DNA of 64,000 bases, taken from the NCBI GenBank assembly GCA_049295655.1, contig JBAQRB010000024.1, forward strand, positions 554 through 64,553. The letters run 5' to 3'. This DNA comes from Rhodocyclaceae bacterium. GTDB lineage: Bacteria > Pseudomonadota > Gammaproteobacteria > Burkholderiales > Rhodocyclaceae. Of the stretch, positions 30,715 to 55,522 are shown piece by piece. The translations under genes and the position numbers were made by a program. Under the pieces are notes generated by a model. That model searched no databases and had not been told where the DNA came from. It saw nothing but the letters and a program-made list of their open reading frames with translations. Every line of letters starts with the position of its first letter. The first letter of the stretch is position 1.

Positions 30715-31755
30715 TCACTCCGCCGGCTGCCGAACCGGCAGCGTGATGCGGAAAGCGGTTCCCTTGCCCACCTCGCTGGACACCTCGATTCGCCCGTGGT
30801 GCTTCTGCACGATGCCATAGGACAGCGACAGGCCGAGCCCGGTCCCCTGCCCGATCGGCTTGGTGGTAAAAAATGGGTCAAAAATCTTCTGCATGTTTTC
30901 CGGTGGAATGCCGCAGCCATCGTCGGCGATTTCGATCCATACGGTGTCGTGATCGCCCATTCCGCTGCGCACGAAAATCTTGCCGCGCCGCTCGCTGCTC
31001 ATGGCGTGCGCCGAGTTGACCAGCAGGTTCATGAAAATCTGATTCAGTTGCGAGGCCATGCACTCGACCTGCGGAATATCGCCATATTCCTTGACGACGT
31101 CGGCCTTGTAACGGATTTCGTTGGCGACGATATTGAGCGTCGAATCGATGCCCTGATGCAGATCGGCCCAGAGATACTTCCCTTCGTCGGTATGCGAGAA
31201 GTCCTTCAGATCCTGAACGATCTTCTTCACCCGGTCGATGCCTTCTTTCGATTCGGCGAGGATCGCCAGCATGTCGGTTTTCAGGTAATCGACATCCAGC
31301 CGTCGACGGAGCTCGGCCAGCGCATCGCGTTCGGCCTGCGGCAAAGCGGCCTCCGCCGACTCGTAGGCAGCGATCAACTCGAGCAGGTCGCCGGCATAGT
31401 CGCCCAGCGTTGACAGGTTCGAATTGACGTAGCCAATCGGGTTGTTGATTTCGTGCGCCACCCCCGCCGCCAGCTGGCCGATCGACGCCATTTTCTCGGA
31501 TTGCAGCAACTGGTTGTGTGCCTGCTCGAGCTTGCCGATCAGTACGGTCTGCTCGTCTTTCTCGCGCAGCAGCGCTTCGTGGCGCTGCGTCAACTCGCTC
31601 GACATGATATCCAGCGAGCGCTCGACCAGCACTCTGTCGCTATCGGCCTTGCCGTAGGCTTCATTGACCGCGGCAATGAAGGCGTGCCAGTTCTCTGGAA
31701 TATCCTTGAGGGAACCAAAATTCCGCCGGATCTGGCGTTCAAGCAAGCGATGCAT
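30715..31755 (-). CDS. cytoplasmic histidine kinase (short N-terminus, HisKA + HATPase)
   Basis: H-box [23 protein letters not shown] and G-boxes [22 protein letters not shown] lies 7 nt upstream of ATG 31755. It is a paralogue of the kinases at 34099 and 37836. Confidence 0.85.
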
Positions 31756-31859: not shown

Positions 31860-34091
31860 TTATTCCGGTTCCGGCCCGAGGACGCGGAGCACTTCCGCGA
31901 GGCTCGTCTCACCGAGCGAAACCTTCTTCCAGGCATCGACCCACAGCGATTCATGGCCACTCGAACGCGCGTGCGCGGCGATCTCCTTGATGCTGGCACT
32001 GCGCGCAATCAGGTCGCGCATGGCTTCATCCGGCAACAGTATTTCGTACAACCCGAGCCGGCCGCGGTAACCGCTGCCGGCGCATTCGGCGCAACCCAGC
32101 CCGACGAAGCTGGCGACCGGCTGGGAGCGGAAAAGTGGGCCGAGGCGCGCGGCTGCCGCGGCATCGAAGGCGATTTCATGGCGGCAGTGGCGGCAGATCC
32201 GGCGTACCAGCCGCTGCGCGATGACGCCCTCGAGCGCGCTGGCCACGATGAAGGGTTTCAGACCGAGATCGAGCAGGCGGGCAATCGTCGCCAGCGCCGA
32301 ATTGGTATGCAGCGTGGATAACACCTGATGGCCGGTCAACGCTGCGTGAAACGCCACCTCGGCCGTTTCGAAGTCGCGAATCTCGCCGATCAGCACGACA
32401 TCCGGATCCTGCCGCAGGATCGAGCGCAGCACCACCGGAAAGGATAGCCCGATCTTCTCGCGGACCAGCACCTGACCAGCCATGTCGAGGTAGTACTCGA
32501 CCGGATCCTCGATCGTGATGTAGTTCTTGGTGGGCGAAGCATTGGCCTGCAGCAATGAATACAGGGTGGTCGTCTTGCCGCTGCCAGTCGGCCCGGTGGC
32601 CAGCAGCAGGCCTTGCGGCTTGTCGACCATGGCCCGTACCTTGACCAACCCGTTCTCGCCGAAACCGAGCCCGGCCAGACTGAGTACCGCCGAATTACGG
32701 TCGAGGATGCGCATGACCACTTTTTCACCGTTGATCGTCGGCAGCGTCGAGATACGCAGATCGACGATGCGGACCGGCGACTTGACCGTAAGGCGCCCGT
32801 CCTGCGGCCGGCGGCGCTCCGAGATGTCGAGCTCGGCCATGATCTTCAGGCGGGAGACCAGCGGACTGTGCAGCGCGTGGGGAATGTGGATCTTGTCGTG
32901 CAGGACGCCATCGATACGCAGCCGCACCACGACGTTCTTGGTGCGCGGCTGGATGTGGATGTCGGATGCGCCGAGGCGCATGGCCTCGAGAATAATCGCG
33001 TTGGCCAGCCGGATGGCCGGCAGTTCGATGCACGAGGCCAGCAGTTCGTCGAGCGGCACGTTGTCCTCGTCGTCGATGACGATCTCGATGCCTTCGTAGG
33101 GATCGACGCTGCCGGCCAGGGTCTCGAGGTCGCGGATGTCGACGCCGTCGCTGTCGCCGTACACCTCGACAATTTTAGCGCGGATGGCCGCGGCGTCAGC
33201 CATCACTACCTTGAGGTCGAGTCCGGCGGTGAACCGGACATCGTCGATCAGGCCGGCGTCCATCGGGTCGGCGACCGCCAGCATCAGCCGGCGACCTTCG
33301 AGCTTGAGCGGCACGACCAGTTGTTTGTCGCAGAAGCTGCGCGGAATCAGCTCGGCGACGACGCTATCGACGCGAAATTCGCTGAGCGCCACTTCCTCGA
33401 CCAGCAGGTCTTCGCGCAAAATCTTGCGCAGCGACTTCTCGGCGACCCAGCCGCGATCGAGCAGCAGCTTGATCAGCGGCTCCTTGTGGATGCCCTGCAG
33501 GCGAGTCAGCTCCTGCAACTGCGCGCTGGACAGCAGATTCTTCTTGTGCAGCATCATGCCGAGCTGGCTGCGGTTGGAGACAGCGAGGCGCGAGAGCGCC
33601 GTGATCTCCTTCGACTTCTTGGCATTCTCGAGGCTGAGCGCCCGGTTCTTCTGCACCAGATCGAACTGCTCCAGCGCCAACGCGACCGTCACCCGCAGAT
33701 CATCGTCGTTCCACGGCTTGAGGATGAATTTGTAGACGGCGCCCTCGTTGACGGCGCCCATCACCGCCCCGGTGTCGGCATGGCCGGTGAGCATGATGCG
33801 CAGGGTATCCGGATGGCGGTGCTTGACCTCCTTGAGCAACTCGGCGCCGTTCATGCCGGGCATCATGTAGTCGCTGATCACGACATGGACCGGCGCCTCA
33901 GTCAGCCGCTCCAGCGCCTCCTTGCTGTCGCCGGCGGTGAGAACCTCATAAGCTTCGGAACGGAACGTACGGGTCAGCGCCTTGAGAATACCGGGCTCGT
34001 CGTCGACGATCAGGATGCGATAACGTTTCGCCGGCGCAGTCTCGTGCGGCGCGTCGCCTTGTCCGGTGAAATAGGCGGCGTAGTTGCTCAT
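31860..34091 (-). CDS. REC - T2SSE_N/MshEN-like - GspE/PilB-family secretion-type ATPase fusion
   Basis: N-terminal REC (ILIVDDEPGILKAL..VISDYMMPGMNG..FILKPWNDDDL). Central LGMMLHKKNLLSSAQLQELTRLQ-type repeats. Walker A GPTGSGKTTT, Walker B DPDVVLIGEIRD, His box LSTLHTNSA and tetra-Cys CRHC..CAEC. Confidence 0.9.
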   Translation of the reverse strand: MSNYAAYFTGQGDAPHETAPAKRYRILIVDDEPGILKALTRTFRSEAYEVLTAGDSKEALERLTEAPVHVVISDYMMPGMNGAELLKEVKHRHPDTLRIMLTGHADTGAVMGAVNEGAVYKFILKPWNDDDLRVTVALALEQFDLVQKNRALSLENAKKSKEITALSRLAVSNRSQLGMMLHKKNLLSSAQLQELTRLQGIHKEPLIKLLLDRGWVAEKSLRKILREDLLVEEVALSEFRVDSVVAELIPRSFCDKQLVVPLKLEGRRLMLAVADPMDAGLIDDVRFTAGLDLKVVMADAAAIRAKIVEVYGDSDGVDIRDLETLAGSVDPYEGIEIVIDDEDNVPLDELLASCIELPAIRLANAIILEAMRLGASDIHIQPRTKNVVVRLRIDGVLHDKIHIPHALHSPLVSRLKIMAELDISERRRPQDGRLTVKSPVRIVDLRISTLPTINGEKVVMRILDRNSAVLSLAGLGFGENGLVKVRAMVDKPQGLLLATGPTGSGKTTTLYSLLQANASPTKNYITIEDPVEYYLDMAGQVLVREKIGLSFPVVLRSILRQDPDVVLIGEIRDFETAEVAFHAALTGHQVLSTLHTNSALATIARLLDLGLKPFIVASALEGVIAQRLVRRICRHCRHEIAFDAAAAARLGPLFRSQPVASFVGLGCAECAGSGYRGRLGLYEILLPDEAMRDLIARSASIKEIAAHARSSGHESLWVDAWKKVSLGETSLAEVLRVLGPEPE

Positions 34092-34098: not shown

Positions 34099-35292
34099 TC
34101 ATACAGGGAGTTCGATCATCACCGTCGTGCCACCTTCGATCGGATTGAGCACCGACAGCGAACCGCTGTGCGCGAGAATGATGTCGCGCGCCACCGTCAG
34201 CCCAAGTCCGCTGCCGCTACCCACCGCGCGGGTGGTAAAAAAAGGATCGAAGACTCGCGGCATCACGTCTTCCGGGATGCCCGGGCCGTTATCCGCAATG
34301 CGCACCGTGATCCGCTCGGCAGTCGCCCGCGTGCAAACGCTGACCCGACCCTGCTCGCCGACCGCCAGCAGGGCGTTCTGCAGGATATTGAGAAAGGCCT
34401 GGTTGAGGTGGCCGGGCAGGCACAGCAGGGGCGGCAGCGCGGCAAAATCGGCGTCGAGGGTCACACCAGCCGGTTTTTGCCCGCCGATCACCGAAAGCAG
34501 CGATTCGAGCTGCGCGTTGAGATCGACGATCTGCTCGTCGGGCTGGTCGATGCTGGAAAACCCCTTGAGATCCTTGACGATGCGCGCGATGCGATCGATT
34601 CCGGCGCGCGAATCCTTGAACAGTTCGGCAAAGTCATCGAGCGCGAAGTCGAGGTCAAGTGCCTTCCATGCCTCGGCAGGCACCGACGGGCGAAGCTCGG
34701 CAAAATCGGCGACGTAGCGCTCGGCCGACGACAGATTGCTGCTGATGAAACCGAGCGGATTGTTGATTTCGTGCGCCACACCGGCTGCCAGCTGACCGAT
34801 CGAGGCGAGGCGCTCGGCCTGATAGAGCTGGCGTTGCCGCTCGTCGATAATCACCAATTGCTCCTTGACCTTGGCATCGAGCGCTTCAGACAGTTCACGG
34901 TATCTCGTTTCAGAGGCTTTCAGCGCTGCGTTCTGCTGTTGCAGCTTGGCGTAGTCGGCGCGGATGGCCTCCATGTGCAGATCGGAAACCATGCGAAAGC
35001 GGGCGCGCGAGAGCAGCCCCCAGCGTACGGCGCGGGCGGCGGCGGCCAGCGCTTCGGGCGCGCAGGCGCAGGCGAGAAACCCCACCGGCTCGAGTTCCAG
35101 GATCAGCGGCGCGCGGAGCGTGCCGGCGAGAAGCGGGCTATCGGCACCGCCAAAGCGCACCCCACCCGCGTCGAGCACCGCCACCGGGCTGCCCAGCATG
35201 GCCTGCAGGGCCGTCGCCATCTCGTCGGCGTCCCGGATCGTGATCAGATCGTCGAGGATGAAGTCACGGTCGAAGGCGACGTCGCTGCTCAT
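34099..35292 (-). CDS. histidine kinase with uncharacterised ~150-aa N-terminal domain
   Basis: H-box [23 protein letters not shown] and G-boxes DNGPGIP..GSGSGLGL. ATG 35292 overlaps the stop of the upstream GTPase gene (ATGA); the ORF track starts at 35337. Confidence 0.85.
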   Translation of the reverse strand: MSSDVAFDRDFILDDLITIRDADEMATALQAMLGSPVAVLDAGGVRFGGADSPLLAGTLRAPLILELEPVGFLACACAPEALAAAARAVRWGLLSRARFRMVSDLHMEAIRADYAKLQQQNAALKASETRYRELSEALDAKVKEQLVIIDERQRQLYQAERLASIGQLAAGVAHEINNPLGFISSNLSSAERYVADFAELRPSVPAEAWKALDLDFALDDFAELFKDSRAGIDRIARIVKDLKGFSSIDQPDEQIVDLNAQLESLLSVIGGQKPAGVTLDADFAALPPLLCLPGHLNQAFLNILQNALLAVGEQGRVSVCTRATAERITVRIADNGPGIPEDVMPRVFDPFFTTRAVGSGSGLGLTVARDIILAHSGSLSVLNPIEGGTTVMIELPV

Positions 35293-35945
35293 GCGGGGGC
35301 TCCGCCGATCACTGCGGCGACGAAGCGGTCTTCGCACAGCCCGTGCTCACGGGCCAGGCCAAACTCGTCCGCGTAGCGTTGCCAGACGCCGTGGAGCAGC
35401 GCGGCGCAGGTTTCACGCACCCCCTGCCCCTGGACTGCCGCCGAAAATATCAGCGGCCACGGCGCCCCGGCGTAACGCTTGCGGATCTCGTCCTCGGGCA
35501 GGATGTCCTGCAGGTCGCGCTTGTTGAACTGGACAACGAGCGGCAAACGATCGAGGTCAAGGCCGACCCGCGCGAGGTTCTCGACGAGATTGTCGAACGC
35601 CTCGCCGTTATTGGTCGACTGCGTGCGCTGCGAATCGGCGACAAAAACCACGCCGTCGGCCCGCGACAACACCGCCTTGCGGGTGCCGTCATGCGCCACT
35701 TGCCCAGGCACCGTAAATAGACGAAAACGGATGGTCAGCCCCGACGAGGTACGAAAGCCGAGCGGTAGGAGGTCAAAAAACAGCGTACGGTCGTGCTGCG
35801 TCTCGAGCGTCATCAATTCCCCCTTCATTTCGGCGCCGACCAGATCGTGCAACTGCATCAGGTTGGTCGTCTTGCCGCTCTGCGCCGGCCCGTAATAGAC
35901 CAGTTTGAAGGTGAGGCGATTGGCCTCGCGCACAAGTTCCGGCAT
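35289..35945 (-). CDS. MglA-family Ras-like small GTPase
   Basis: Collinear with Myxococcus MglA as I recall it: KLVYYGPAQSGKTTNL (G1), DRTLFFDLLPL, LFTVPGQV (MglA-type G3), VVFVADSQ, QFNKRDL (G4). ATG 35945 shares 1 nt with the upstream stop (TGATG). Confidence 0.85.
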   Translation of the reverse strand: MPELVREANRLTFKLVYYGPAQSGKTTNLMQLHDLVGAEMKGELMTLETQHDRTLFFDLLPLGFRTSSGLTIRFRLFTVPGQVAHDGTRKAVLSRADGVVFVADSQRTQSTNNGEAFDNLVENLARVGLDLDRLPLVVQFNKRDLQDILPEDEIRKRYAGAPWPLIFSAAVQGQGVRETCAALLHGVWQRYADEFGLAREHGLCEDRFVAAVIGGAPA

Positions 35946-36523
35946 CAGGGCCGCTCCCGCGCCTGAACTTGTTCCTCGGCATCGAACAGGGACTCGTCGA
36001 GCAGAACCGAACCGTCCGGCCCCCATTTGACCTTGGTAATCCCCGGCTCGTCGGCTTCCAGACGCTGCATTTCGATTTCCTCGACGCTCATGTCGCCCTG
36101 CAGCAGGCGCGCCTCGTCGGCCAGACGGCGGTCTTCAAGGAGTTGCTCGTGCCGCGTCAAACCCAGCCTGACCGTGGCCACCAGATTGTCGTCGTCCCAC
36201 GGCTTGGTGAGATAGCGAAAAATTTCGGCCTCATTGAGCGCGCTCATCAGCGCATCGAAATCGGTCGATGCCGAAAGAATCAGGCGCACGCTATCCGGCT
36301 GCAACTGCCGTACTCTCTTCAAAAAGGTTACCCCATCCATCGGCGGCATGCGGAAGTCGGAGATGACCAGATCGAACATCGTGTTACCGAGCCGCTCAAG
36401 CGCCAAACGCGGGTCGTCGAACGTCTCGAGATGCAGATCTTCGCCGGCGAAGGCACGCTGCAGCGTGCGGCGCAACGCCCTGAGCACGTTGTTTTCGTCG
36501 TCTACGATCAGCATTCGTTTCAT
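35945..36523 (-). CDS. single-domain response regulator with ~70-aa acidic C-terminal tail
   Basis: REC (MLIVDDENNVLRAL..VISDFRMPPMDG..YLTKPWDDDNL). ATG 36523 lies 2 nt after the upstream stop; GTG 36529 is an alternative. Confidence 0.85.
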   Translation of the reverse strand: MKRMLIVDDENNVLRALRRTLQRAFAGEDLHLETFDDPRLALERLGNTMFDLVISDFRMPPMDGVTFLKRVRQLQPDSVRLILSASTDFDALMSALNEAEIFRYLTKPWDDDNLVATVRLGLTRHEQLLEDRRLADEARLLQGDMSVEEIEMQRLEADEPGITKVKWGPDGSVLLDESLFDAEEQVQARERP

Positions 36524-36525: not shown

Positions 36526-37839
36526 TCACTTCCGCTCTGGGCGAACATAAATCGTCAGACGGACGCCCTCGCTCGCCTCGAAATCCTGAATCTGGCGGAT
36601 CAGGTTGGCGTCGAGCATGTAGTCTGCGGCGAGCAGCAGGACGCCGCTCCGGCTGACCAGATCGCGCGCCATCGCCATGCCCGGCTTCAACTCGGCCGCC
36701 ATCAGCGCAATCTCGTTACGGTGTTCCTGCTCGACGCTGCCGGTGATCTGCAGAAAGGCATCGACCACCTGCGGATCGTAGCGCTTGCCGCGCCCATCGA
36801 CGATCAGCTTCTTCGCGTCTTCCGGATTGAGGCGGCGCGCGGCGACGATGCCGATCTGCAAGCCGTCGAAATCATTCACCAGCGCCAGAATGCGCGCGCC
36901 GATCGGGATCGCCAGCCCGGCCACGCCGTCCGGATACCCTTGCCCGTCGAAACGCTCGTGGTGCGAGCGGATCAGTTTGGCGACGCCGCGCAGTTCGGCC
37001 AGCGCCATCAGCGATTGCTCGCCCTTGACCGGATGCTTGCGATACAGCCCGAGGTCTTCGCCACTCATCTGCGTCACCGCTCTGCTCAGCAACGCGTCGG
37101 GCAAGCCGATCTTGCCGATGTCATGCAACAGACCGGCCACGAACACGTCCTGCGCATCGCGCGGGGAAAGTTCGAGCTTGTTGGCAATTTTGCGCGAAAG
37201 GTCAGCGACCCGACGCGAATGACCGGCGAGCGTGCTCTCGCGCAGGTCGATCAGATTGGCAAAGACCTTGATCGACGTCAGGAAGCTCGTCTTCAGCTTT
37301 TCGTTGGCAGCGGCCAGTTCGGCGGTACGCGCCTCGACTTTGCTCTCCAGGCTGGCGTTGAGCGCCTTGAGTTCCTCGTTCTGGCGCAGCGTCAGCGCTT
37401 CGAGACGCGTCTTCTCGCGCTCCAGCGCCTTGCGTTCGAGCGCATGGCGGACGATCAGCAACATATCGTTGTCGTCCCACGGCTTCGATATATAGCGAAA
37501 GATCTGGCCCTTGTTGATCGCATCGACGGTCGAGGCGATATCGGCATAGCCGGTGAGCAGGATGCGGACCGTCTCCGGCCAGCGTGCACGCACCTGCTCG
37601 AGAAAGCGTGCGCCATCCATCTCGGGCATGCGCATGTCCGAGATGACCAGGTCGAAATGTTCGTTCTCCAGCGCCTGCAGGCCCTCGGCACCGCTATTGG
37701 CGACCACCACCTGATAGGCGCTCTGGCGGAACAGCCGGCGCAGCGACGAAAGGATATTCGGTTCGTCGTCAACGCACAGCAAGCGCCAAGGTGCCGTTGT
37801 CTCATTCCCGGCTTCCCCGGGGTTTGTCGTTTCGCTCAT
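36526..37839 (-). CDS. response regulator with HD-GYP output domain
   Basis: REC (LLCVDDEPNILSSL..VISDMRMPEMDG..YISKPWDDNDM), a coiled coil, then HD-GYP (LLHDIGKIGLP..HHERFDGQGYP). ATG 37839 overlaps the upstream kinase stop (ATGA). The first 126 codons of the ORF-track entry are rejected. Confidence 0.9.
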   Translation of the reverse strand: MSETTNPGEAGNETTAPWRLLCVDDEPNILSSLRRLFRQSAYQVVVANSGAEGLQALENEHFDLVISDMRMPEMDGARFLEQVRARWPETVRILLTGYADIASTVDAINKGQIFRYISKPWDDNDMLLIVRHALERKALEREKTRLEALTLRQNEELKALNASLESKVEARTAELAAANEKLKTSFLTSIKVFANLIDLRESTLAGHSRRVADLSRKIANKLELSPRDAQDVFVAGLLHDIGKIGLPDALLSRAVTQMSGEDLGLYRKHPVKGEQSLMALAELRGVAKLIRSHHERFDGQGYPDGVAGLAIPIGARILALVNDFDGLQIGIVAARRLNPEDAKKLIVDGRGKRYDPQVVDAFLQITGSVEQEHRNEIALMAAELKPGMAMARDLVSRSGVLLLAADYMLDANLIRQIQDFEASEGVRLTIYVRPERK

Positions 37840-39686
37840 AGTGACCAGTCGGGCTCGGGCGTCGATCCGTTCGTCGGTTCGGTGTGTTTGATCGGTAGCG
37901 TAATGCGGAAGGTCGTTCCCTTGCCGACCTCGCTCTTCACCGTCAGATGTCCGTTGTGATTCTGGATAATGCCGTAGGACAAGGACAGGCCAAGCCCCGT
38001 CCCCTTGCCGACCGGCTTGGTGGTAAAGAACGGATCGAATATTTTCGGCAGGACATCGGCGGGAATACCGCTGCCGGTATCGGCGATTTCGATCCACACG
38101 TTGGCGCCGGTACACCCGCTGCGGATGGTTATCTTGCCGCGCACATTGTCGCTCATGGCGTGCGCGGCGTTGACACAGAGATTCATGATCACCTGGTTGA
38201 TCTGCGACGGCAGGCACTCGACGTCGGGCAGGTCGCCGTACTCCTTGAGCACATCGGCCTTGTACTTGATCTCGTTGGCGACGATGTTGAGCGTCGAGTC
38301 GATGCCATGATGCAGATTCGCCAACTGGTACTGATCGGTACTGTCGACGTGCGAGAAGTCTTTCAGGTCCTGGACGATTTTCTTGACCCGGCTGATCCCT
38401 TCCTTCGATTCCTTCATCAACAGCGGGATATCCTCGCGCAGAAATCCGATGTCGAACGCCTTGTGCAGGGCTTTCACCGTCTCCGACGCTTCGTCCGCCT
38501 CGTAGGCGGCGAGCAGGGTAAAGACGTCATCGAGATATTTTTCCAGCGCACAGATATTCGAATGCACGTAACCGATCGGGTTGTTGATCTCATGCGCGAC
38601 GCCGGCTGCCAGCTGGCCGATCGACGCCAGCTTCTCCGCCTGCACGAGCTGCTGCTTGGCTTCCGAGAGCCGGGTATTGAGTTCGCTGACCTCGGTGTAG
38701 CGTTTGCGCAGCTCCTGCTCGGTCGCTTCGCGGCGCTCGATATCTTCGGCCAGCATTTTGTTGCTCGCTGCCAGCTGCTGCGTCCGGCGTTCGACGAGTT
38801 CCTCGAGCCCGGCTTGCGCCTTGCGTAATTTCTCTTCGGCCAGCCGGCGCTCGGTGACATCCTGCAAGGTTTCAATGGCACCGATGATGCGGCCCTCGGC
38901 GTCGCGCAGGGGCGCTGCGGTAAAGAACAGCCAGCGACCGCCAGTGCCGAAATGCGGAAAAAAATCCTCGGCTTCGTACGCCCCGGTCGCCACCGTCGAG
39001 CGCTTGAACTTGCTGTGATAAAGGCTGCCGAACTCCGCTTCGATGACGCCATCAACCACCAGGTCGGCCATTACCGGACGCTCGGCGGGGTAGAAGGGCT
39101 GCCATTGCCGGCGGGTTCCCAGCAGGTCGATTGCCGGCACGCCGGTAATTTCCGCGCAGGCCTTGTTCCAGTGCGTAATCTGGTGCCGTTCATTGATGAC
39201 CAGGGTCGGTACCGGGTTGCCATCGATGATTTGCCCGAGCACCTGCTGCATGTGGCGCTGCACGGCATCGGCACGTTTGCGCTCGGTCATGTCGGTTAGC
39301 GAGGCGACGACCGTCGGCATTCCATCCAGATCCAGCAAGGCCAGGTTGGCCTCGACCCAATGTTCCAGACCATCCTTCGCCGCAAGCCGAAATTCGTAGC
39401 GTGGCACCACCGCCTCGCCGCGCAGGCGCGCCATGCCGCGCTGCCGGATGAGGTCACGCGCGTCGGGATGGGCGATCTGATCGAAATCCATCGCCAGCAG
39501 TTCGTCGCGGCCAAAACCGGTCAGCACCTCGAGTGCCGTGTTGGCGTAGAGAATGTGGGCACCGCGGTGCAGCATGATCGCCGCCCCGATTGCCTCGATC
39601 AGATTGAGACAGGCCGGATCCGGACTTGCCGATTGCTCGGCGACAGACTTCGCTGCTGTTTGCGCTTGCTCCACACTCCCCCCCAT
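37836..39686 (-). CDS. multi-PAS cytoplasmic sensor histidine kinase
   Basis: Two to three PAS-like regions, H-box [23 protein letters not shown] and G-boxes [16 protein letters not shown]. Confidence 0.9.
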
Positions 39687-39692
39687 GTCCTG

Positions 39693-40577
39693 TCAGCCTA
39701 CCAGCATTTCGCAGCCCCCCGCGAACTGTGTTTCAACCTCGCTGAAAATTTCCTGATAGTCGTCCTCGCCAAGCGCCAAAGAGTCCCAAACGACACTCGA
39801 CAGCGGCGGAACGAAACAATACCCGTTTTTGGCAAATTCAAGGGCATGGGCAATCGCATCGGCGATGTGCACGATACCTGAGAGCGGCGTGTGCACGCCG
39901 GCCTCCAGCAGGTGATGTCGGCCAACGGCTTCCTGGATCAGGGGCGGAAAGTTCCAGTGCGCGGCCAGTACTTCTCCGATCATGGCATGATCGACACCGA
40001 GCACGTCGCGTTCCGCCTCCAGCAACAGGCAATCGCACTCGGCGCGATAGGCCAGCACTGCCGCGAGATGCGCAGGAAAGCACGAAGCCAGCACCAGACG
40101 GCCGACATCGTGCAGCAACGCGGCGGTGAAGGCGTTCTCCTCGCTTATCTGCGTCCGCCGGGCAAGCGCTTTCGCACACAGCGCCGTGCCCATGCAGTGT
40201 CGCCAGAAACCGTGAAAATCGAAACCCGGCACCGCGTTGTGGCTGGTAAAGCTGCCGGTGACCGCCGCCGCCATCGCCAGCGTACGCACGCTCCGCATGC
40301 CCAGAACGACGATCACGTCCTGGATCGAGGAAACCTTGCCCTGCAGGCCGTAAAACGACGAATTGGCGACGCGCAGCATCTTCGCCACGAGGGCCTGATC
40401 GGACGCAATCTTCTTGGCGAGCAGATGGGTGTCGACGTTGTCGTCGGAAAGGCTCTGGATCAACTCGAGAATCACCGCCGGCAGTGAAGGAAGCGTCCCG
40501 ATCTGGCCGACCACCTGCGCCAAATCGAGTTTCATGGCCGGCGCCGACAGCCCTTCTCGCGCATTGCGCAGCGTCAT
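39693..40577 (-). CDS. HDOD domain protein
   Basis: 294 aa with the typical HDOD N-terminus (LPSLPAVILELIQSL..D..LAKKIASDQALVAKMLRVANSSFYG) and a degenerate HD region (LLHDVGRLVL). Confidence 0.85.
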   Translation of the reverse strand: MTLRNAREGLSAPAMKLDLAQVVGQIGTLPSLPAVILELIQSLSDDNVDTHLLAKKIASDQALVAKMLRVANSSFYGLQGKVSSIQDVIVVLGMRSVRTLAMAAAVTGSFTSHNAVPGFDFHGFWRHCMGTALCAKALARRTQISEENAFTAALLHDVGRLVLASCFPAHLAAVLAYRAECDCLLLEAERDVLGVDHAMIGEVLAAHWNFPPLIQEAVGRHHLLEAGVHTPLSGIVHIADAIAHALEFAKNGYCFVPPLSSVVWDSLALGEDDYQEIFSEVETQFAGGCEMLVG

Positions 40578-40759
40578 TGCGGCAGCCTCCAGCGATACTC
40601 GATCACCATGTGCATCAGTTGCCGCACGGGTTCGCCGTCGCCGGCGAGACGAAAAATATCTCGCAAGCGCTGCTCGATCTTCGCCCGCCTTGCAGCTTCA
40701 TCCGCAGCATCGTCAGGCGTCGCGCCGTCGACTGGCAGTTCTCCGTGTCCATCGCTCAT
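40574..40759 (-). CDS. small hypothetical protein (61 aa)
   Basis: GAAGGAGG lies 4 nt upstream of ATG 40759. The stop overlaps the HDOD start (ATGA). Acidic N-terminus plus a predicted helix. No family recognised. Confidence 0.5.
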   Translation of the reverse strand: MSDGHGELPVDGATPDDAADEAARRAKIEQRLRDIFRLAGDGEPVRQLMHMVIEYRWRLPQ

Positions 40760-40769
40760 CGTGCCTCCT

Positions 40770-41603
40770 TCAATAGACAAACAGCATCAGCTTGCCATGG
40801 GACTGGGAATGTTCGCCCATCACGCGGCAAGTCACCCGCCAATCACGTCCATCATCCAGCCAAACGATCGTGCTGCCGTCACCGGCCGTCAGCAGTGCTT
40901 GCAGAGCGTCCGGCAAACGCTCTTTGGCAAAGCTGCCGACCAGCGGCTGACCTTTGGCGATCACGCGTTCGGCCTCGATATTGGCAAAAACGATCATTCC
41001 CTCGTCGTCAAAGCCGATGACCGGCAAAGGCACGCGCTGCAGGATTTCCTGCGCGACGTTGAGCGTCACATTGTCGATCGCCAGCTGCCTCTCGCGCTCG
41101 GCAAGCAAGACGCGCAACTGCTCGTTGACCACCGCCAGCCCCCAGTTGGCGCGTTGAATCTCCTCGTTCAAGCGCAAATTGTCATCGGCAAGTTCCTTGT
41201 GCCGAAAGGCCTCGGCGATATTGGCGCGCAGCTGTTCGTCATCCCACGGTTTGGTCAGGAATTTGTAGATCGCCCCCTCGTTGATCGCATCGGTGATCGA
41301 CTGCAACTCGGTATATCCCGACAGCACCATGCGCACGGTATCGGGATAAGACTCCTTGACGCGACGCAGAAACTCGACGCCCGTCATGTTCGGCATGCGC
41401 TGGTCGGAGAGGATGACGTCGACCCGATGCTGCTCCAGCAATTCAAGCCCTTGCGCGCCGCCGTTGGCAATCAGGATTTCATACCCCTCCCGGCGCAGCA
41501 GACGGCGCAGGGAGGTCAGGATGTTTTCCTCGTCATCGACGAGCAGCAAGGTGCGTTTGCGCACCACGTCGGTCGCAGATTCGGCGTTTGTCATGTCGCT
41601 CAT
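40770..41603 (-). CDS. response regulator (REC + coiled coil + PAS-like C-terminal domain)
   Basis: REC (LLLVDDEENILTSL..ILSDQRMPNMTG..FLTKPWDDEQL). ATG 41603 is chosen; the ORF track starts at 41735 in a low-quality region. Confidence 0.85.
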   Translation of the reverse strand: MSDMTNAESATDVVRKRTLLLVDDEENILTSLRRLLRREGYEILIANGGAQGLELLEQHRVDVILSDQRMPNMTGVEFLRRVKESYPDTVRMVLSGYTELQSITDAINEGAIYKFLTKPWDDEQLRANIAEAFRHKELADDNLRLNEEIQRANWGLAVVNEQLRVLLAERERQLAIDNVTLNVAQEILQRVPLPVIGFDDEGMIVFANIEAERVIAKGQPLVGSFAKERLPDALQALLTAGDGSTIVWLDDGRDWRVTCRVMGEHSQSHGKLMLFVY

Positions 41604-41987
41604 GTTTTCCCCGTTCGCACGATGTGCCAAAACACTATATACCCAAGCCGCCACCAGCGACAAACGAACCCGGAAACGATTTTCCCGCCCGCGCTTGCGA
41701 CGGACAGATTCGAGCCTGGAATGCGGCAGAACCATGACAGAAGTATAGGTCCTGCAGCAATACCTCGTCGGACATCATTTTCTTCGGAAAAAGGCAGATG
41801 AGGGCGTTCATCTTTTCGCCGGCACCGCCCAGCCAAGAGGCACGAGGACGGGCGATCGGAAAAGAGCGGGACGTCCGTTCATCAAGCATGGCGGCGGACG
41901 GCAACTGACCGCTGTCGACAAAATTTCCTTCCCGGTCTCCAAAGCGAACATATCGGGCCATGCACGCGGAGCGAAAGTTCGCGAAGC

Positions 41988-44249
41988 TTACCCCTCTCCC
42001 GCAGGCACGGCGAGCGATGCGCGTGCCGCTATTTCCTGAGCATAATGAATAAAGGCTTCGTGAATCTGTTCGCGCAGCTCGTCGTCGTCCCATGGCTTGG
42101 TCAGGAAACGGAAAATGGCGCCGTGATTGATCGCATTGGTCAGCGAAGCCAGATCGCTGTAGCCTGAGAGCACCATGCGCACGGTTCGTGGATAAAGCGC
42201 TTTGACGCGGCTGAGAAACTCGGTTCCGTTCATGTACGGCATGCGCTGGTCGGAAACGATCACCTGCACCTCGTTCAATGCCAGCAGTTCGAGTGCGGCA
42301 GCACCGGAAGTGGCGCACAGAATGCGGTAACCGCTGTGCCGCAGCAGACGTTTCAGTGTATTCAGGATATCTTCCTCGTCGTCGACGAGGAGCAGCGTGC
42401 GTAGCGCGGGGTCTGCCTCAGCGCTGCTCAGCGGCAGGTGCTCGGCGCGCTCGATGAAGTCGCGAAAGCCATCGGCCGGCAGCGGTTGCGAGAAGAAATA
42501 GCCCTGTAACTGTTCGCAATTCTGCTGGCGCAGATAGCGCATCTGGCTTTCGGTTTCGACGCCCTCGGCCACCACGTACAGCCCCAGGCTGTGCGCCATG
42601 GCGATGACGGCAATGGCGATCAATGCATCGTCGGGTTCGGTGGTGATGTTCTGTACGAAGGAGCGGTCGATCTTCAGGCAATCGAACGGAAAGCGCTTGA
42701 GGTAACCGAGGCTGGAATAGCCAGTGCCGAAATCGTCCATCGCCAGACTGACGCCAAGCGCCTTGAGTCGCCGCAGCACACTCTCCGCCGTATCGAGATT
42801 CTGCATGACCATCGACTCGGTCACTTCGATCTGTAGCCATTTCGGGGCAAGACCGGCATCACCCAGCGCCGATGCGACGATCTCGACGATATTTTCCTGC
42901 CGGCACTGGCGCGCCGAAAGGTTGACCGCAATGGTCAGCGCCTGCAAGCCCTCGCGTTGCCAACGCGCCGCTTGCAGGCAGGCTTCGCGCAATACCCATT
43001 CGCCGATCGGCAGGATGATTCCCGACTCTTCGGCGAGCGGAATGAAGTGGGCCGGCAGAACCAGACCTTTCGCCGGATGCTGCCAGCGAATCAGCGCCTC
43101 GGCGCCGCAGATCTCGCCGGAATACAGATCGGCCTTGGGCTGATAATAAAGCTTCAGTTCGCCGCGCTCCAGCGCACCACGCAAGCCGGCTTCAAGCTCG
43201 GCCTCCTCCTGGGCGCGCTCGTTCATCACCTGTGCGTAACAGTTGAAACCGTTGCGCCCGCCGGCCTTGACCTGATACATGGCAAGATCGGCCAGGCGCA
43301 GCAGCGACGGCGCATCGCTCGCGTCCTGCGGATAAAAGCTGATGCCAATGCTGGGCGTGACGAACAACTCGCGGCCATCGAGATCGAAAGGCTGCGCCAA
43401 CAAGGCGAGTAATTTTCGGGCGAGCATCGTCGCGTCTTCATGCCGGGCCAGCTCGCTCAACACGAGAACGAACTCGTCGCCGCCGATGCGGGCAACGGTA
43501 TCGCCTTCGCGAACGCTTCCCTCTAGGCGTGTCGCCACGGCCTTCAACAGGCTGTCGCCAAGGCTGTGGCCCAGGCTGTCATTCACCTGCTTGAAGCGAT
43601 CCAGATCGATCAACAGGACGGCGGCGATGCTCCCGTCGCGCGCACTGTGCGTGACGGCCTGCGTCAGCCGGTCGGCGAGCAGCGTGCGGTTGGCCAAACC
43701 GGTCAGCATATCGTGGGTGGCCAGATACGCTACCTGGCTATCCCGGAATACCTGCTCGCTGACGTCGTCAAGAATGCTGACATAATGACCGATCGCCCCC
43801 TGGGCGTCGGGCGCCGGCACGACGGAAAGCTGGTTCCAGAAGGACGAACCGTCCTTGCGGCAGCACTGCACCATGGCCTGCCCCGAGTCATGCGAGCGCA
43901 ATGCGTGCCGGATGACGTCAAGTGCCGGCTGGTCGAGCGCCTCGCCGAGCAGGAAATGCGCGCTGCGACCGATCGCCTCTTTTGCCGGATAACCGGTGAT
44001 GCGCTCAAAAGCCGGGTTAACGTAGATAATCGGGTGCTGCGGCGCCACGGCATCGGTCATCATGATGCCATTGGACGATGACTCGACGGCGCGTACAAAC
44101 AACTGTAAGCAACGCCATGCCGCCTCGCTGTGCGTGCCAGCCGCCGGCGCTCCCGACAGCGCGCGCAGCAGGGACGATGCATCGAAGCGCTGCCCGCCTT
44201 CGGGGCTATCGAGAAAATCCTTCAGTGCATCGGAGATCGGCATGGTCAT
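41988..44249 (-). CDS. PAS - GGDEF - EAL - REC multidomain c-di-GMP turnover protein
   Basis: PAS regions. An intact GGDEF (ARIGGDEFVLVL) is preceded by RxxD (REGD). Intact EAL (GAEALIRW, DDFGTGYSSL). C-terminal REC (LLLVDDEEDILNTL..IVSDQRMPYMNG..FLTKPWDDDEL). The start is uncertain (ATG 44249/44243 or TTG 44279). Confidence 0.9.
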   Translation of the reverse strand: MTMPISDALKDFLDSPEGGQRFDASSLLRALSGAPAAGTHSEAAWRCLQLFVRAVESSSNGIMMTDAVAPQHPIIYVNPAFERITGYPAKEAIGRSAHFLLGEALDQPALDVIRHALRSHDSGQAMVQCCRKDGSSFWNQLSVVPAPDAQGAIGHYVSILDDVSEQVFRDSQVAYLATHDMLTGLANRTLLADRLTQAVTHSARDGSIAAVLLIDLDRFKQVNDSLGHSLGDSLLKAVATRLEGSVREGDTVARIGGDEFVLVLSELARHEDATMLARKLLALLAQPFDLDGRELFVTPSIGISFYPQDASDAPSLLRLADLAMYQVKAGGRNGFNCYAQVMNERAQEEAELEAGLRGALERGELKLYYQPKADLYSGEICGAEALIRWQHPAKGLVLPAHFIPLAEESGIILPIGEWVLREACLQAARWQREGLQALTIAVNLSARQCRQENIVEIVASALGDAGLAPKWLQIEVTESMVMQNLDTAESVLRRLKALGVSLAMDDFGTGYSSLGYLKRFPFDCLKIDRSFVQNITTEPDDALIAIAVIAMAHSLGLYVVAEGVETESQMRYLRQQNCEQLQGYFFSQPLPADGFRDFIERAEHLPLSSAEADPALRTLLLVDDEEDILNTLKRLLRHSGYRILCATSGAAALELLALNEVQVIVSDQRMPYMNGTEFLSRVKALYPRTVRMVLSGYSDLASLTNAINHGAIFRFLTKPWDDDELREQIHEAFIHYAQEIAARASLAVPAGEG

Positions 44250-44353
44250 TGCGATGGGTCTATCAACTGAGGCAATCAATAGGTAGAAATATTCTCACTT
44301 ACCAAAGGGCAGTGTAAAGCAAATGCGCGACACGAAACGCGCAAGCGTCCGTC

Positions 44354-44842
44354 TCAAGCACCGATGCGCAGACCGGTCTTCTTGAGTATCTGCGTCGAGA
44401 ACAGCACGTCGTGCGCCCGGAAATCGGCGCCGAGCAGTTCGGCGATCTGAGCGACCTTGCTCAGCACCTCTTCACGCGAACTGCCGTGCACCATGGCGAA
44501 CAGGTTGTACGGCCACGCCGGCAGCTTGCGCGGCCGATGGTAGCAGTGCGTCACGAAATCCAGCGCGCCGATGCGCGCACCGAGCTCGTCGATGCGCTCG
44601 TCCGGCACGTCCCAGACACTCATGCCATTCGCCGTGTAGCCGATCGCGTAGTGATTGGGCACGGCACCGATGCGGCGGATGACGCCGCGTTCGAGCATGC
44701 TGGCAAGGCACGCCATGACCTCCTCGACCGGTGCGCCCAGCTGCTCGGCCAGTGCATGGTAGGGGCGCGGCACGAGCGGCAGACCGCCCTGTGTGGCGAC
44801 GACGAGACGGCGCTCCAGATCATCAACCGTAATGGTATTCAT
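44354..44842 (-). CDS. nirH: siroheme decarboxylase subunit NirH (Lrp/AsnC-like, heme d1 biosynthesis)
   Basis: 162 aa. An AsnC-like HTH is followed by a ..NLFAMVHG.. region typical of NirD/L/G/H. ATG 44842 overlaps the nirG stop (ATGA). The first 82 codons of the ORF-track entry are rejected. Confidence 0.8.
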   Translation of the reverse strand: MNTITVDDLERRLVVATQGGLPLVPRPYHALAEQLGAPVEEVMACLASMLERGVIRRIGAVPNHYAIGYTANGMSVWDVPDERIDELGARIGALDFVTHCYHRPRKLPAWPYNLFAMVHGSSREEVLSKVAQIAELLGADFRAHDVLFSTQILKKTGLRIGA

Positions 44843-45327
44843 GAACACACCGCCAGCTTCATTTCGACGAAGAACTCCTTGAGTTTGGGGAAAGGAAAGA
44901 CCGGCAGGCCGGTAGCGTCTTCGATCTTCTGCACGGCGCTGGCAATCCCTTCCGGCGTCTCGGTGGCCAAGACGAACCACATATTGAACTCGCACTGCCG
45001 GGCGCTCTCGCGGCGGTAGTTGTGCGCGACTTCCGGAAAGGCGTTCACCGCGGCCAGCACGCGATCCCAATCGGCGTCCGGCACGCACATGGCCGCCAGC
45101 ACGAAGGCGCCGCCCATGCGCTCGACCTGGAACATCGGGCCGAAGCGGGTCAGCACGCGGGTGTCGAGCATGCGCTGCAGGCGCGAGAGCAGCGCTTCTT
45201 CGCTGATGCCGAGCGCTACGGCGGCCTCGGCGTAGGGTCGCTCGCAGATCGGGAAATCGCCCTGCAGGCGATCGATGATCGCGCGGTCGATCTCGTCGAT
45301 CGCTTTGATGGTCGCGGTTTCACGCAT
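44839..45327 (-). CDS. nirG: siroheme decarboxylase subunit NirG
   Basis: ~162 aa NirD/L/G/H-family paralogue (IDRAIIDRLQGDFPICERPY..EVAHNYRRE..NMWFVLA). ATG 45327 is preferred to GTG 45336. Confidence 0.8.
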   Translation of the reverse strand: MRETATIKAIDEIDRAIIDRLQGDFPICERPYAEAAVALGISEEALLSRLQRMLDTRVLTRFGPMFQVERMGGAFVLAAMCVPDADWDRVLAAVNAFPEVAHNYRRESARQCEFNMWFVLATETPEGIASAVQKIEDATGLPVFPFPKLKEFFVEMKLAVCS

Positions 45328-46300
45328 AACGGGCACCGGTCTGCTTGAAACGGGTCAGTGAAAACAGGGTGTCGTGTGCGTAAGCAGAAAGCTTGAGGCG
45401 CTCGCGCAGTTCGGCAATTTTTGCTTCGACTTCAGTGCGCGCCTGCCCGTGAATCATGCAAAAGAGGTTGTACGGCCAGTCCGGCCGCACGCGCGGGCGC
45501 TGATAGCACAGGGTGACGCCCGGTTCGCCCGCCAGCATCTCGCCGAGCGTCCCGACCAGCGGATCGGGAATATCCTGCACCAGCATGGCATTGGCCGTGT
45601 AGCCAAGCTCATGGTGGCGAACGACGACGCCGAAACGCTTGATGACGCCCTCCTCGCACCAGCGGCTGATCCTTTCGAGCACTTCGCTCTCTTCGCAGCC
45701 GACCCGGTTGGCGAGGACCTGGAAGGGGCGGATGAAGAGCGGCAGGCCCTCCTGCAGCGCCATCACCAGACGCCGTTCGAGTTCGCCGAGCTGCCTCGGC
45801 GGCATGAAGGGACGGGCCTGCACCGCGCGCTTCTCCTCCTTGCCGTTCAGCGAGAAACCGAGGTCGATGTGGTATTCCCGCTCGAGTGGCAACTTCAGCA
45901 CCGGATAGCCGGCGGCCTGCGCGATGGCGCCAAGCGCCGCCTGCAGCCGGCCTTCCGAACCGGCGGTGACGACGAACCACAGGTTGTAGCGGTGTTCGCG
46001 TTGGTAATTGTGATTGACCTCGGGAAAACGATTGACCGACTCGGCAACGCGCGCCAGCTTCTCGGGCGGCACGGCCATGGCGGCCAGCGTGCTGGCGCCG
46101 ATCCGCTTCGGCGCGAAGACGGCGCCGACGCGCGAAATCTTCCCTTCGCGGCGCAGTTCCTCGAGCATGCGCAGCACCGCGCCCTCGGCGACGCCAAGCG
46201 TCGCCGCGAGTTCGGCGAACGGCGCCGGGCAAAGCGGAAAATTTCGCTGGAAATTGTTGAGCAGGCGAAAGTCGAGTGTTTCTTCCATTGCTTCTTCCAT
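45320..46300 (-). CDS. nirDL: fused siroheme decarboxylase NirD-NirL
   Basis: 326 aa made of two tandem NirD/L/G/H-type modules (..EVNHNYQREHRYNLWFVV.. and ..TLCYQRPRVRPDWPYNLFCMIHG..). Its position after nirF matches the Paracoccus-type nirF-DL-G-H order. Confidence 0.85.
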   Translation of the reverse strand: MEEAMEETLDFRLLNNFQRNFPLCPAPFAELAATLGVAEGAVLRMLEELRREGKISRVGAVFAPKRIGASTLAAMAVPPEKLARVAESVNRFPEVNHNYQREHRYNLWFVVTAGSEGRLQAALGAIAQAAGYPVLKLPLEREYHIDLGFSLNGKEEKRAVQARPFMPPRQLGELERRLVMALQEGLPLFIRPFQVLANRVGCEESEVLERISRWCEEGVIKRFGVVVRHHELGYTANAMLVQDIPDPLVGTLGEMLAGEPGVTLCYQRPRVRPDWPYNLFCMIHGQARTEVEAKIAELRERLKLSAYAHDTLFSLTRFKQTGARYA

Positions 46301-46307
46301 CGCTCGA

Positions 46308-47474
46308 TCAGAATCCGGTGCGGCTGGCGCGGCTGGTGAAGAAAATGCCGCTCGGGCTGTCGGCGGCGAACTCGCCGATCCTGGCGAAAGTCGCCGTATC
46401 GTAGATCAGGACCTTGTTGTCGTCGCGCGCCGAGAGCCAGACGTGCTCGCCGCGCGGCGTGAATTCCATGTGCAGGATGGCCTTGCCGGGCTCCATCGTC
46501 TTGACGATCTTGCCGGTCAGCGTGTCGATCACTTCAACCGACGAATTGTCGGGAAAAGCGTAATTGACCCAGATCTGCCGCCCGTCCGGCCGCGCCATGA
46601 CAAACACCGGCTGCCCCTTGACCTTGATCCGGCCGACCTCGCGCCAGTTGTCGGCATCGACCACCAGCACTTCGTGGCGGCCGATCGCCGGCAGGTAGGC
46701 ATGGCCCTGCGCCATCGACCAGCCGCGCAGATGCGGCATCTTGAAGACCGGCAGCTTCTCCTGTCCGCGCCCGTAGTTCGCGAGGATCTTGCGCGCCCCC
46801 TGCTGCGGCAGCCAGGTATCGAGCAGGGCAATGCCATCCTCACCGAACAGCCCGGTCATGTAGAAACGCCCATCCGGCGTGACCAGCCCGTCGTAGGGCT
46901 GCTGTCCGGCAGGGAAACGCTGCGTTGTCGGATGCCGCGGATCGGAAAAGTCGCTCACCCAGATCTCGCCGCCTTCGAACAAGGCATAGCCGAAGCGGTT
47001 GCCCGACAGATCGGCCAGTCCGACGACCTTGGAAAATTTGCCCGGCGCGTATTCGGCCGGCACCTCGGAGAGCAGTTCGAGCGTATCGACGTCGAACGCC
47101 TTGATGCCGCCCGGCGTGTAATTCTGAGCAACGACGATGCGGCCATCCTGCGAGATCGAGCCGCCGATCGAGTTGCCGGCCTGCATGATGCGCTTGACGA
47201 CGCGCGCTTCGAGCAGATCGACCTTGGTCAGGCCGCCATCGCGACCGAAAATGAAGGCGTAGCGCCCATCGCGCGAATAGACGGCGGAGGCATGCGAGAG
47301 GTCGCCCAGTCCCTCGATCCGGGCATAGGGCGCGCGCTTGCTGGTATCGACCAACGTCAGCTTGCCGCTGGCGCGTTCGATGACCAGACCGAGATCGCCG
47401 GTGCCGCGCAGTTGTGGCGGCGTAGCGCAGGCGGAAAGGAGGACGACGGACAGGAGGGCGAGAATTTTTCGCAT
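46308..47474 (-). CDS. nirF: NirF (d1-type beta-propeller protein, heme d1 biosynthesis), lipoprotein
   Basis: ATG 47474 gives MRKILALLSVVLLSAC (lipobox). A cytochrome d1-type 8-bladed propeller-like sequence with no CXXCH, so it is not NirS. Confidence 0.85.
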   Translation of the reverse strand: MRKILALLSVVLLSACATPPQLRGTGDLGLVIERASGKLTLVDTSKRAPYARIEGLGDLSHASAVYSRDGRYAFIFGRDGGLTKVDLLEARVVKRIMQAGNSIGGSISQDGRIVVAQNYTPGGIKAFDVDTLELLSEVPAEYAPGKFSKVVGLADLSGNRFGYALFEGGEIWVSDFSDPRHPTTQRFPAGQQPYDGLVTPDGRFYMTGLFGEDGIALLDTWLPQQGARKILANYGRGQEKLPVFKMPHLRGWSMAQGHAYLPAIGRHEVLVVDADNWREVGRIKVKGQPVFVMARPDGRQIWVNYAFPDNSSVEVIDTLTGKIVKTMEPGKAILHMEFTPRGEHVWLSARDDNKVLIYDTATFARIGEFAADSPSGIFFTSRASRTGF

Positions 47475-47555
47475 GGACGATCTCAAGGGCTGATCAAACA
47501 AAAACGGCACAGCCCGAAGGATGCGCCGCCCGCTAGCGGAATACTTTGGCTTAGG

Positions 47556-49363: not shown

Positions 49364-49365
49364 AT

Positions 49366-50238: not shown

Positions 50239-50250
50239 TGACGACTTTAC

Positions 50251-53472: not shown

Positions 53473-53476
53473 CTTT

Positions 53477-54463: not shown

Positions 54464-54572
54464 TTCACGATCCTTTGTTGACCCGGCGGCATGAAGGCTT
54501 GCTGTTCCCGTTGCCGCTCAAAAACTCCGTATTACAGCATATGCTGATTTACTAACTTTCACTGTAGTACAA

Positions 54573-54598: not shown

Positions 54599-54622
54599 TT
54601 TTTACTGCCGAAAACCCCCTGC

Positions 54623-55475: not shown

Positions 55476-55522
55476 GCAGGGCGTCCCACGAAAACAAACC
55501 TGACGCCCCGCCCAGACAGGCA

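Follow-up and report, generated by a model that had tools for sequence, protein, structure and literature searches.

A predicted MglB-independent GTPase of the SofG-like branch is co-inherited with a histidine kinase and a receiver-fused PilB/GspE-like ATPase

Among the polarity switches of bacteria, the small Ras-like GTPases of the MglA type are best understood, and MglA in its GTP-bound form stimulates type IV pili. We know of no regulator of SofG or of the other family members that lack MglB, and to our knowledge the actinobacterial conservons are the only described class of bacterial system in which a kinase is joined to a G-protein. We have analysed here a 64,000-nucleotide (nt) stretch of DNA from a Rhodocyclaceae bacterium (assembly GCA_049295655.1, contig JBAQRB010000024.1; hereafter the window, to whose coordinates all positions refer) that encodes an MglA-family GTPase with no accompanying MglB. 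The GTPase gene, the gene for a soluble histidine kinase, and the gene for a PilB/GspE-like ATPase fused to a receiver (REC) domain follow one another in a fixed, co-inherited cassette.

Group 1 of the MglA family is defined by a TVPGQ motif, an intrinsic arginine next to the G2 threonine and a canonical [NT]KxD (Wuichet and Sogaard-Andersen 2014, PMC4316618). In that survey 59 of 449 MglA proteins were orphans and were left unanalysed, and its Table S2 lists Daro_0968 (214 amino acids, aa), HCH_00229, Metme_1144 and Gmet_3475 merely as '<MglA'. In the same table each myxobacterial genome has exactly three Group 1 paralogues: a 195-aa MglA accompanied by MglB, a form linked to PATAN that is about 370 aa long, and an orphan, about 237-242 aa in length, to which SofG (MXAN_6703, 239 aa) belongs. 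MglB does not stimulate SofG, the GTPase-activating protein (GAP) of which is unknown (PMC4316618), and SofG requires GTP hydrolysis and positions PilB and PilT (PMC4085708). MglA proteins with Ser or Ala at position 21 go with the absence of MglB, and a GTP-locked state has been proposed for them (Milner et al., PMC3983030). The conservons couple a kinase to a Group 2 MglA together with Roadblock and CvnC proteins (PMC13343842, PMC13621833). MglA-family GTPases without MglB are in themselves already known, with SofG, Bd3734 and the 59 orphans of PMC4316618 as examples; our literature searches turned up no report of either the GTPase-kinase-REC-ATPase cassette or a partnership between PocR kinases and the SofG branch.

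Conservation and co-inheritance of the cassette

The central genes of the locus are as follows.

36526..37845, (-) strand: REC-HD-GYP response regulator of the cyclic di-GMP (c-di-GMP) phosphodiesterase type (Pfam HD_5 and Response_reg)
35945..36523 or 36529, (-) strand: single-domain receiver, 192-194 aa (Pfam Response_reg)
35289..35945, (-) strand: MglA-family GTPase, 218 aa, Group 1, SofG-like branch (PDB phmmer, tree, overlaps)
34099..35292, (-) strand: soluble histidine kinase, 397 aa (Pfam HisKA and HATPase_c)
34957..35292, (-) strand: kinase residues 1-112, reduced PocR-type domain (AlphaFold2, hhalign, Foldseek)
31860..34091, (-) strand: REC-MshEN/T2SSE_N-GspE/PilB-type hexameric ATPase, 743 aa (REC-GspE; Pfam T2SSE at 411 bits, Response_reg and MshEN)
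30715..31755, (-) strand: second soluble histidine kinase, 346 aa, downstream of REC-GspE (Pfam)

An initial annotation of this DNA had described the GTPase as sandwiched translationally between the receiver gene and the kinase, and both junctions, read from the sequence, are as it described. The receiver TGA and the GTPase ATG have one A in common ('...CCC TGATG CCG'), with a GGGAG Shine-Dalgarno sequence 9 nt upstream of the GTPase start, and the kinase start ATGA contains the GTPase stop TGA ('GCA TGA GC'). The REC-GspE ATG lies 7 nt past the kinase stop.

Sixteen related loci, among the matches listed, were compared. The kinase gene directly follows the GTPase gene in 16 of the 16, overlapping or closely abutting it, and the kinases are homologous over their full length, N-domain included; REC-GspE lies downstream of the kinase in 13 of the 14 loci that reach far enough. 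The loci belong to beta- and gamma-proteobacteria (Azonexus, Sulfuricella, Rhodoferax, Marinobacter, Pseudomonas zhanjiangensis and Aquisalimonas) and to Thermodesulfobacteriota (Geomonas, Desulfoluna, Desulfobacteraceae and Desulfuromonadales). The cassette occurs in culturable bacteria, and Daro_0968 of Dechloromonas aromatica and Gmet_3475 of Geobacter metallireducens are relatives among the catalogued orphans. At the genetic level the link between two-component signalling and a Ras-like switch that the initial annotation had proposed is borne out by this coupling, which is present in every related locus and across phyla, but that annotation had passed over REC-GspE as a third constant component. 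The receiver, REC-HD-GYP, HDOD, REC+unknown, PAS-GGDEF-EAL-REC and extra kinase genes recur around the trio in variable order, with REC-HD-GYP found in most related loci as a frequent upstream neighbour.

The matrices of pairwise distances computed for the GTPase, the kinase and the ATPase correlate with each other (Spearman 0.77-0.88, Mantel p<=0.0005), and the three proteins therefore move together. The GTPase tree departs from the species phylogeny, with a Desulfocapsaceae row nested within Rhodocyclales, and the cassette is patchily distributed, being found in eight of the 60 further family genomes and in two of 400 others sampled across the phylum, and being absent from the sole other genome of the same genus. 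This mismatch and this patchiness, both drawn from sequence comparison, indicate that the cassette is horizontally mobile.

The GTPase and the absence of MglB

A phmmer search of the PDB with the GTPase returned Thermus MglA (3t12, E 9e-46) and Myxococcus MglA (5ymx, E 1e-44), and the next match after the MglA structures is Arl6 at only E 0.006, so that the MglA matches are well outside the range of chance. The protein is about 50% identical to MglA of M. xanthus and Thermus and has all of the G motifs in place (KLVYYGPAQSGKTTNL, DRTLFFDLLPL, TVPGQV, VVFVADSQ and NKRDL). The initial annotation of a genuine 218-aa MglA-family GTPase is upheld, in that all of the motifs it quoted are found and the matches to solved MglA are in the range of E 1e-45. 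The P-loop is G19-P-A21-Q-S-G-K25-T26 (GPAQSGKT, which fits GxxxxGKT), and G4 is the canonical NKRD. The G3 motif TVPGQ (residues 78-82), in which Thr78 replaces the usual Asp and Gln82 is catalytic, is invariant in the orthologue alignment, and an intrinsic arginine finger, Arg53, stands beside the G2 threonine in an equally invariant D52-R53-T54 and aligns with R53 of solved MglA. Judged by these motifs the protein is a genuine MglA-family GTPase of Group 1, because the TVPGQ G3, the DRT with Arg53 and the canonical NKxD are those by which PMC4316618 defines that group. It is encoded by the sole MglA-family gene of its genome, in single copy.

Three features set the GTPases of the cassette clade apart. 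Ala at position 21, which corresponds to Gly12 of Ras, is invariant in the clade, and switch II reads GQVAHD where MglA has GQVFYD; Ala21 and the altered switch II fit a loss of MglB control. A C-terminal extension of about 30 aa is also conserved (...HGL.E..F...), with the motif [HF]G[LVI]....F common to the sister branch. GTP hydrolysis seems to be retained in the cassette GTPases, since Arg53 and Gln82 stay invariant in all members but one, from a Burkholderiales metagenome-assembled genome. In that locus (L019:1711-3590) the GTPase is degenerate (Y18D, R53H and Q82D), an intact kinase lies just downstream and no REC-GspE follows; the copy may be a pseudo-GTPase variant of the GTPase-kinase pair.

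Placement within the family rests on a maximum-likelihood tree of 80 members from public genomes, among the matches listed; the closest relatives of the window lie outside that listing and were found by a separate genome search. The tree splits with 100/100 support into a canonical MglA group, which has all 23 rows with an adjacent MglB and into which M. xanthus MglA falls, and an MglB-less branch of 35 rows. Sixteen rows with kinase and ATPase neighbours, the window included, form one clade within this branch (100/98). The sister of this clade is a set of proteins about 220-245 aa long from Myxococcota and Bdellovibrionota, and the window GTPase joins the myxobacterial orphan GTPases of about 240 aa in a 34-row clade at 98/87. 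Its sequence thus places the window GTPase in the MglB-less SofG-like branch and not as an orthologue of MglA; it is not MglA sensu stricto because it has no cognate MglB, carries Ala21 and is split at 100/100 from the MglB-adjacent rows. The sister rows are most probably SofG orthologues, as their taxonomy suggests and because their lengths match the SofG-group entries of Table S2 of PMC4316618.

The claim that there is no Roadblock/LC7 gene in the window stands, since a six-frame Pfam Robl_LC7 search finds none within its 64 kb, and a whole-genome hidden Markov model (HMM) search of the kind that the initial annotation had suggested finds no MglB in the same genome or in two closed relatives. 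In the own genome (3.50 Mb in 324 contigs, 96.6% complete) the six-frame search gives a best E of 0.2, and the sub-threshold matches all sit within long unrelated open reading frames. We also searched 60 other genomes of the family for the GTPase and for Robl_LC7 at a threshold of E<=0.01. The GTPase was found in eight of them, and seven of the eight (eight of nine with the own genome) have no Robl_LC7 at this threshold, including the closed genomes G026 and G056. The gene order of the window (REC-HD-GYP, REC, GTPase, kinase, REC-GspE and kinase) is the same in these two and in G319, which is more distant. Robl_LC7 proteins occur in nine of the 61 family genomes, only one of which (G029) also has this GTPase, and they probably belong to Group 3 MglA systems of the kind that PMC4316618 describes for beta- and gamma-proteobacteria; the same search detects Robl_LC7 in Thermus and Deinococcus controls. 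A home-made MglB HMM drifted to long unrelated open reading frames and was used solely for marking MglB-adjacent loci, so that the absence rests on Pfam Robl_LC7. We note for G029 (G029:C163:18685-19326 and G029:C192:12532-12780) that its GTPase copy is 54% identical and has an in-frame TGA, and that the Robl_LC7 gene of this genome is on a different contig.

The kinase, the ATPase and the surrounding genes

The kinase is composed of a reduced PocR-type N-domain, a long coiled-coil/signalling helix, HisKA (His174) and HATPase_c, and His174 and the N, G1 and G2 boxes are invariant in the kinase alignment. The full-length AlphaFold2 model has a predicted local distance difference test (pLDDT) score of 86, and its Foldseek matches are to kinase cores only (ZraS, CckA and HK853). 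As a separate observation, the kinase core (window 34099-34900, (-) strand) matches NCBIfam NF038348 'T2SS_HK' over the C-terminal half of the model with 196 bits, against a cut-off of 450; this suggests that the core is akin to kinases that NCBI ties to type II secretion-like systems.

The N-terminus of the kinase had been described initially as unrecognisable, which is accurate for Pfam, in which residues 1-150 have no match even at E<=10 and the PocR family (PF10114) hits neither the window domain nor any of six cassette kinases at that threshold. A word-based homologue search with the N-domain returned close Rhodocyclales relatives only. The description does not survive profile comparison. 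In the sister branch the gene next to the GTPase gene, and often overlapping it, encodes a PocR-HisKA-HATPase_c kinase with Pfam PocR scores of 41-74 bits, and hhalign aligns the window-type N-domains with the PocR regions of these kinases at 97.1% probability (E 5e-11). The two groups have the motifs L..LL, LG.P..V.D..G and TS.MHLA / M.S.LH.E in common, and two large segments of PocR are missing from the window-type domain, in which about 80 residues remain and about half of the PocR length is lost, probably together with the PocR ligand pocket. His106 (window 34975-34977, (-) strand) lies in the linker helix and is invariant both in the cassette kinases ('M.S.LH.E') and in the PocR kinases beside SofG-like genes ('TS.MHLA'); the phosphoacceptor is another residue, His174.

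An AlphaFold2 model of the isolated N-domain, built from a 17-sequence alignment, has a pLDDT of 91.8 and comprises a helix (19-33), four strands (37-41, 46-49, 59-65 and 68-75) and a linker helix that runs from residue 79 into the DHp. Foldseek matches of this model in the PDB are weak and GAF-like (CodY, SpoVT and the KdpD GAF), with DUF336/HbpS also present and a best E of 0.011, and no Roadblock protein is among the top 50. A Roadblock fold was considered for the N-domain and was rejected on this result, the matches being GAF-like or DUF336/HbpS instead. On the profile alignment and the predicted structure, we conclude that the N-domain is a minimised PocR sensor with a GAF/PAS-like fold, and this PocR homology is, we think, the main new point of the analysis. 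Because the domain is a PocR derivative in the same gene position, the pairing of GTPase and PocR kinase predates the split of the two branches. A role of the N-domain as a GAP or guanine nucleotide exchange factor (GEF), or in docking, is possible.

The 743-aa ATPase has a complete receiver, Walker motifs and a tetra-Cys motif, and its c-di-GMP motif, read from the sequence, is only partly conserved. It scores 526 against TIGR02538 (cut-off 676) and 521 against TIGR02533 (cut-off 630), below the PilB and GspE equivalog levels, and its sequence places it in the PilB/GspE superfamily with no equivalog assigned. Besides this ATPase, the own genome encodes five other GspE/PilB paralogues, together with several PilT-like proteins. 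The REC domain of the ATPase is a probable phospho-acceptor of the cassette kinase.

The single-domain receiver is a frequent accessory of the related loci, variable in position and not always beside the GTPase. The 194-aa protein is an RpfG-type receiver with a conserved element, RLE...PGITKV.WGPDGSV.LD, in its C-terminal third (window 35945-36150, (-) strand). In orthologues from six other loci this element likewise comes after the REC domain, as RLE...PGIT.V.WG.DGSV.L; it belongs to no Pfam family, and the acidic tail behind it is not conserved in the alignment of orthologues. The initial annotation had likened this protein to RomR, which has a REC domain, a Pro-rich region of about 250 aa and a Glu-rich tail (PMC2034494). 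We reject this likeness, given a tail of only about 70 aa, an acidic end that is not conserved, a different conserved element and the variable position of the gene.

The 346-aa kinase downstream of REC-GspE is a paralogue of the cassette kinase without the PocR-type domain, and occupies the same position in G056, G026 and L006. Upstream of REC-HD-GYP are four co-directional signalling genes.

37836-39686, (-) strand: PAS-PAS-histidine kinase gene (Pfam)
39693-40577, (-) strand: HDOD gene (Pfam)
40770-41735, (-) strand: REC+unknown gene (Pfam)
41988-44279, (-) strand: PAS-GGDEF-EAL-REC gene (Pfam), the upstream end of the co-directional cluster at 37836..44279

The signalling cluster has a total of three kinases and six receivers. 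Directly upstream of it is a denitrification stretch (window 44839-58234, (-) strand) with nirDL/G/H-like siroheme decarboxylase genes, a nirF-like cytochrome d1 gene, nosDFY-type genes and nosZ. The + strand downstream of the cluster encodes two cyanophycin synthetases as well as an ABC exporter with DUF1854.

Possible mechanisms and comparison with known systems

Family membership, the absence of MglB, the conservation and co-inheritance of the cassette and the PocR homology were computed here, and there are several models to consider for what the cassette does. The one we favor, to which we assign a probability of about 0.6, is that of a mobile cassette in which an MglB-independent GTPase with a co-translated kinase partner switches or positions a REC-fused ATPase motor. 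The GTPase and the kinase would form a complex through the mini-PocR platform, coupling nucleotide state to kinase activity, and either the kinase would take the regulatory place of MglB or the GTPase would gate the kinase. The kinase would phosphorylate the receiver domain of the PilB/GspE-like ATPase, which the GTP-bound GTPase may engage by analogy with SofG and MglA acting with PilB and PilT in Myxococcus. The outcome would be the switching or positioning of a type IV pilus or type II secretion-like motor with its other parts encoded elsewhere, and the HD-GYP, HDOD, GGDEF-EAL and extra REC and kinase genes would tie the module to c-di-GMP signalling. All of these physical interactions, and their direction, are ones that we infer from sequence.

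Several observations weigh against this model. The contacts among GTPase, kinase and ATPase are deduced, and the correlated distances mean co-inheritance and are no proof of contact. No platform, pilin or secretin genes adjoin the ATPase, which is below both the PilB and the GspE equivalog cut-offs, and the three kinases and six receivers of the cluster leave several candidate phospho-partners for the kinase. Sequence conservation of the N-domain is low (mean 31%) and the domain is very short in Marinobacter and Pseudomonas, which would be odd for a precise GAP surface. Ala21 could mean that the protein is nearly GTP-locked and needs no regulator, and the sister clade is only putatively SofG, by taxonomy and protein length. 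A more specific proposal, that the PocR-type kinase is the long-missing regulator (GAP, GEF or both) of SofG-type GTPases and that the pair gates a PilB-type ATPase by binding and phosphorylation, is one that we put forward tentatively, as possible and not as probable.

Of the alternatives, the one that survives best is that the Ala21 GTPase is a GTP-locked adaptor or localisation factor for the ATPase, like that proposed for the Bdellovibrio MglA with S21, with the kinase controlling the ATPase independently through REC. The invariance of Ala21 in the cassette clade is as this model would predict, the G21V substitution locks MglA and S21 accompanies the loss of MglB in Bdellovibrio (PMC3983030), and SofG and MglA act on PilB and PilT (PMC4085708). 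We nonetheless consider it unlikely, as Arg53 and Gln82 are kept throughout the cassette GTPases with a single exception, which argues that hydrolysis is under selection, SofG itself needs its GTPase activity (PMC4085708), and the GTPase-kinase pair persists in Myxococcota without an adjacent ATPase gene, such that the pair is the conserved unit.

A second alternative, which appears somewhat less likely again, reverses the flow of information, with the GTPase acting as an input sensor of the guanine-nucleotide or energy state for the kinase in place of PocR sensing, and with the output being solely phosphotransfer to REC-GspE, the 194-aa receiver and REC-HD-GYP. It would account for a kinase with no other sensor domain in which the PocR domain is about half lost, probably with its ligand pocket, while the GTPase is always present. 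However, the partner kinases of the SofG-like sister branch have a full PocR and yet also pair with the GTPase, and we know of no precedent for a Ras-like metabolic sensor of a histidine kinase. An ordinary MglA/MglB system with unlinked genes, whose MglB escaped detection through strong divergence or a gap in the assembly, is very improbable even given the divergent sequences of MglB and an assembly in 324 contigs that is 96.6% complete. The closed genomes G026 and G056, which carry this operon, yield no Robl_LC7 at E<=0.01 in a search that detects it elsewhere, the GTPase falls outside the MglB-coupled clade, and SofG is not stimulated by MglB (PMC4316618).

The window and the related loci show that a whole branch of the MglA family, probably including SofG, is genetically tied to a PocR-type kinase, which offers a concrete, testable candidate for the regulator that these GTPases lack. 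A receiver-fused PilB/GspE ATPase is tied to the pair as well in proteobacteria, and this suggests how signals from two-component phosphorylation, from c-di-GMP and from a G-protein may converge on a pilus or secretion motor.

The nearest described relative is SofG of M. xanthus (MXAN_6703), likewise an MglB-independent Group 1 GTPase in which TVPGQ is combined with an intrinsic Arg finger. The nearest branch of the tree consists of SofG-sized orphans from Myxococcota, which have the C-terminal extension in common and are followed by a coupled PocR-type kinase, although their identity with SofG is deduced; the known role of SofG on the PilB and PilT ATPases is paralleled by the PilB-like ATPase of the window operon. 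The window GTPase differs in belonging to a separate clade (100/98) of Proteobacteria and Thermodesulfobacteriota with an invariant Ala21, where Cystobacter-type rows keep Gly, and in having a kinase whose PocR is cut to about 80 residues and an attached gene for a REC-fused ATPase. With MglA/MglB of M. xanthus and Thermus thermophilus it has about 50% identity and the same catalytic design (Arg53, Gln82 and Thr78 for Asp) in common, but it lacks MglB, has Ala for Gly21 and AH for FY in switch II, and carries 20-25 extra C-terminal residues. MglA of Bdellovibrio bacteriovorus (Bd3734) is similarly a natural MglA without MglB, with a residue other than Gly at position 21 (Ser) and a link to type IV pili, but it is 197 aa long, lies in synteny with the mglA loci of canonical systems, is coupled to neither a kinase nor an ATPase, and has RomR and a TPR protein as partners.

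The ATPase resembles those of the MshE/PilB type in its T2SSE_N/MshEN and T2SSE domains with Walker boxes and a tetra-Cys motif, and the combination of REC with MshEN was listed by Wang et al. 2016 (PMC5013675), but the window gene is outside any pil, gsp or msh operon. The actinobacterial conservons (AGPS, CvnA-D) also join a sensor histidine kinase and an MglA-family GTPase in one operon. They differ in requiring the Roadblock protein CvnB and CvnC, in having a membrane-bound kinase and a Group 2 GTPase (GTPGQ, no Arg finger and a deviant G4), and in having no ATPase; membership of the window locus in this class is ruled out, as it has no Robl_LC7 and has Group 1 motifs instead. If the kinase is indeed the regulator of the GTPase, the cassette would represent a second kind of kinase-coupled G-protein system, Roadblock-independent and distinct from the actinobacterial conservons.

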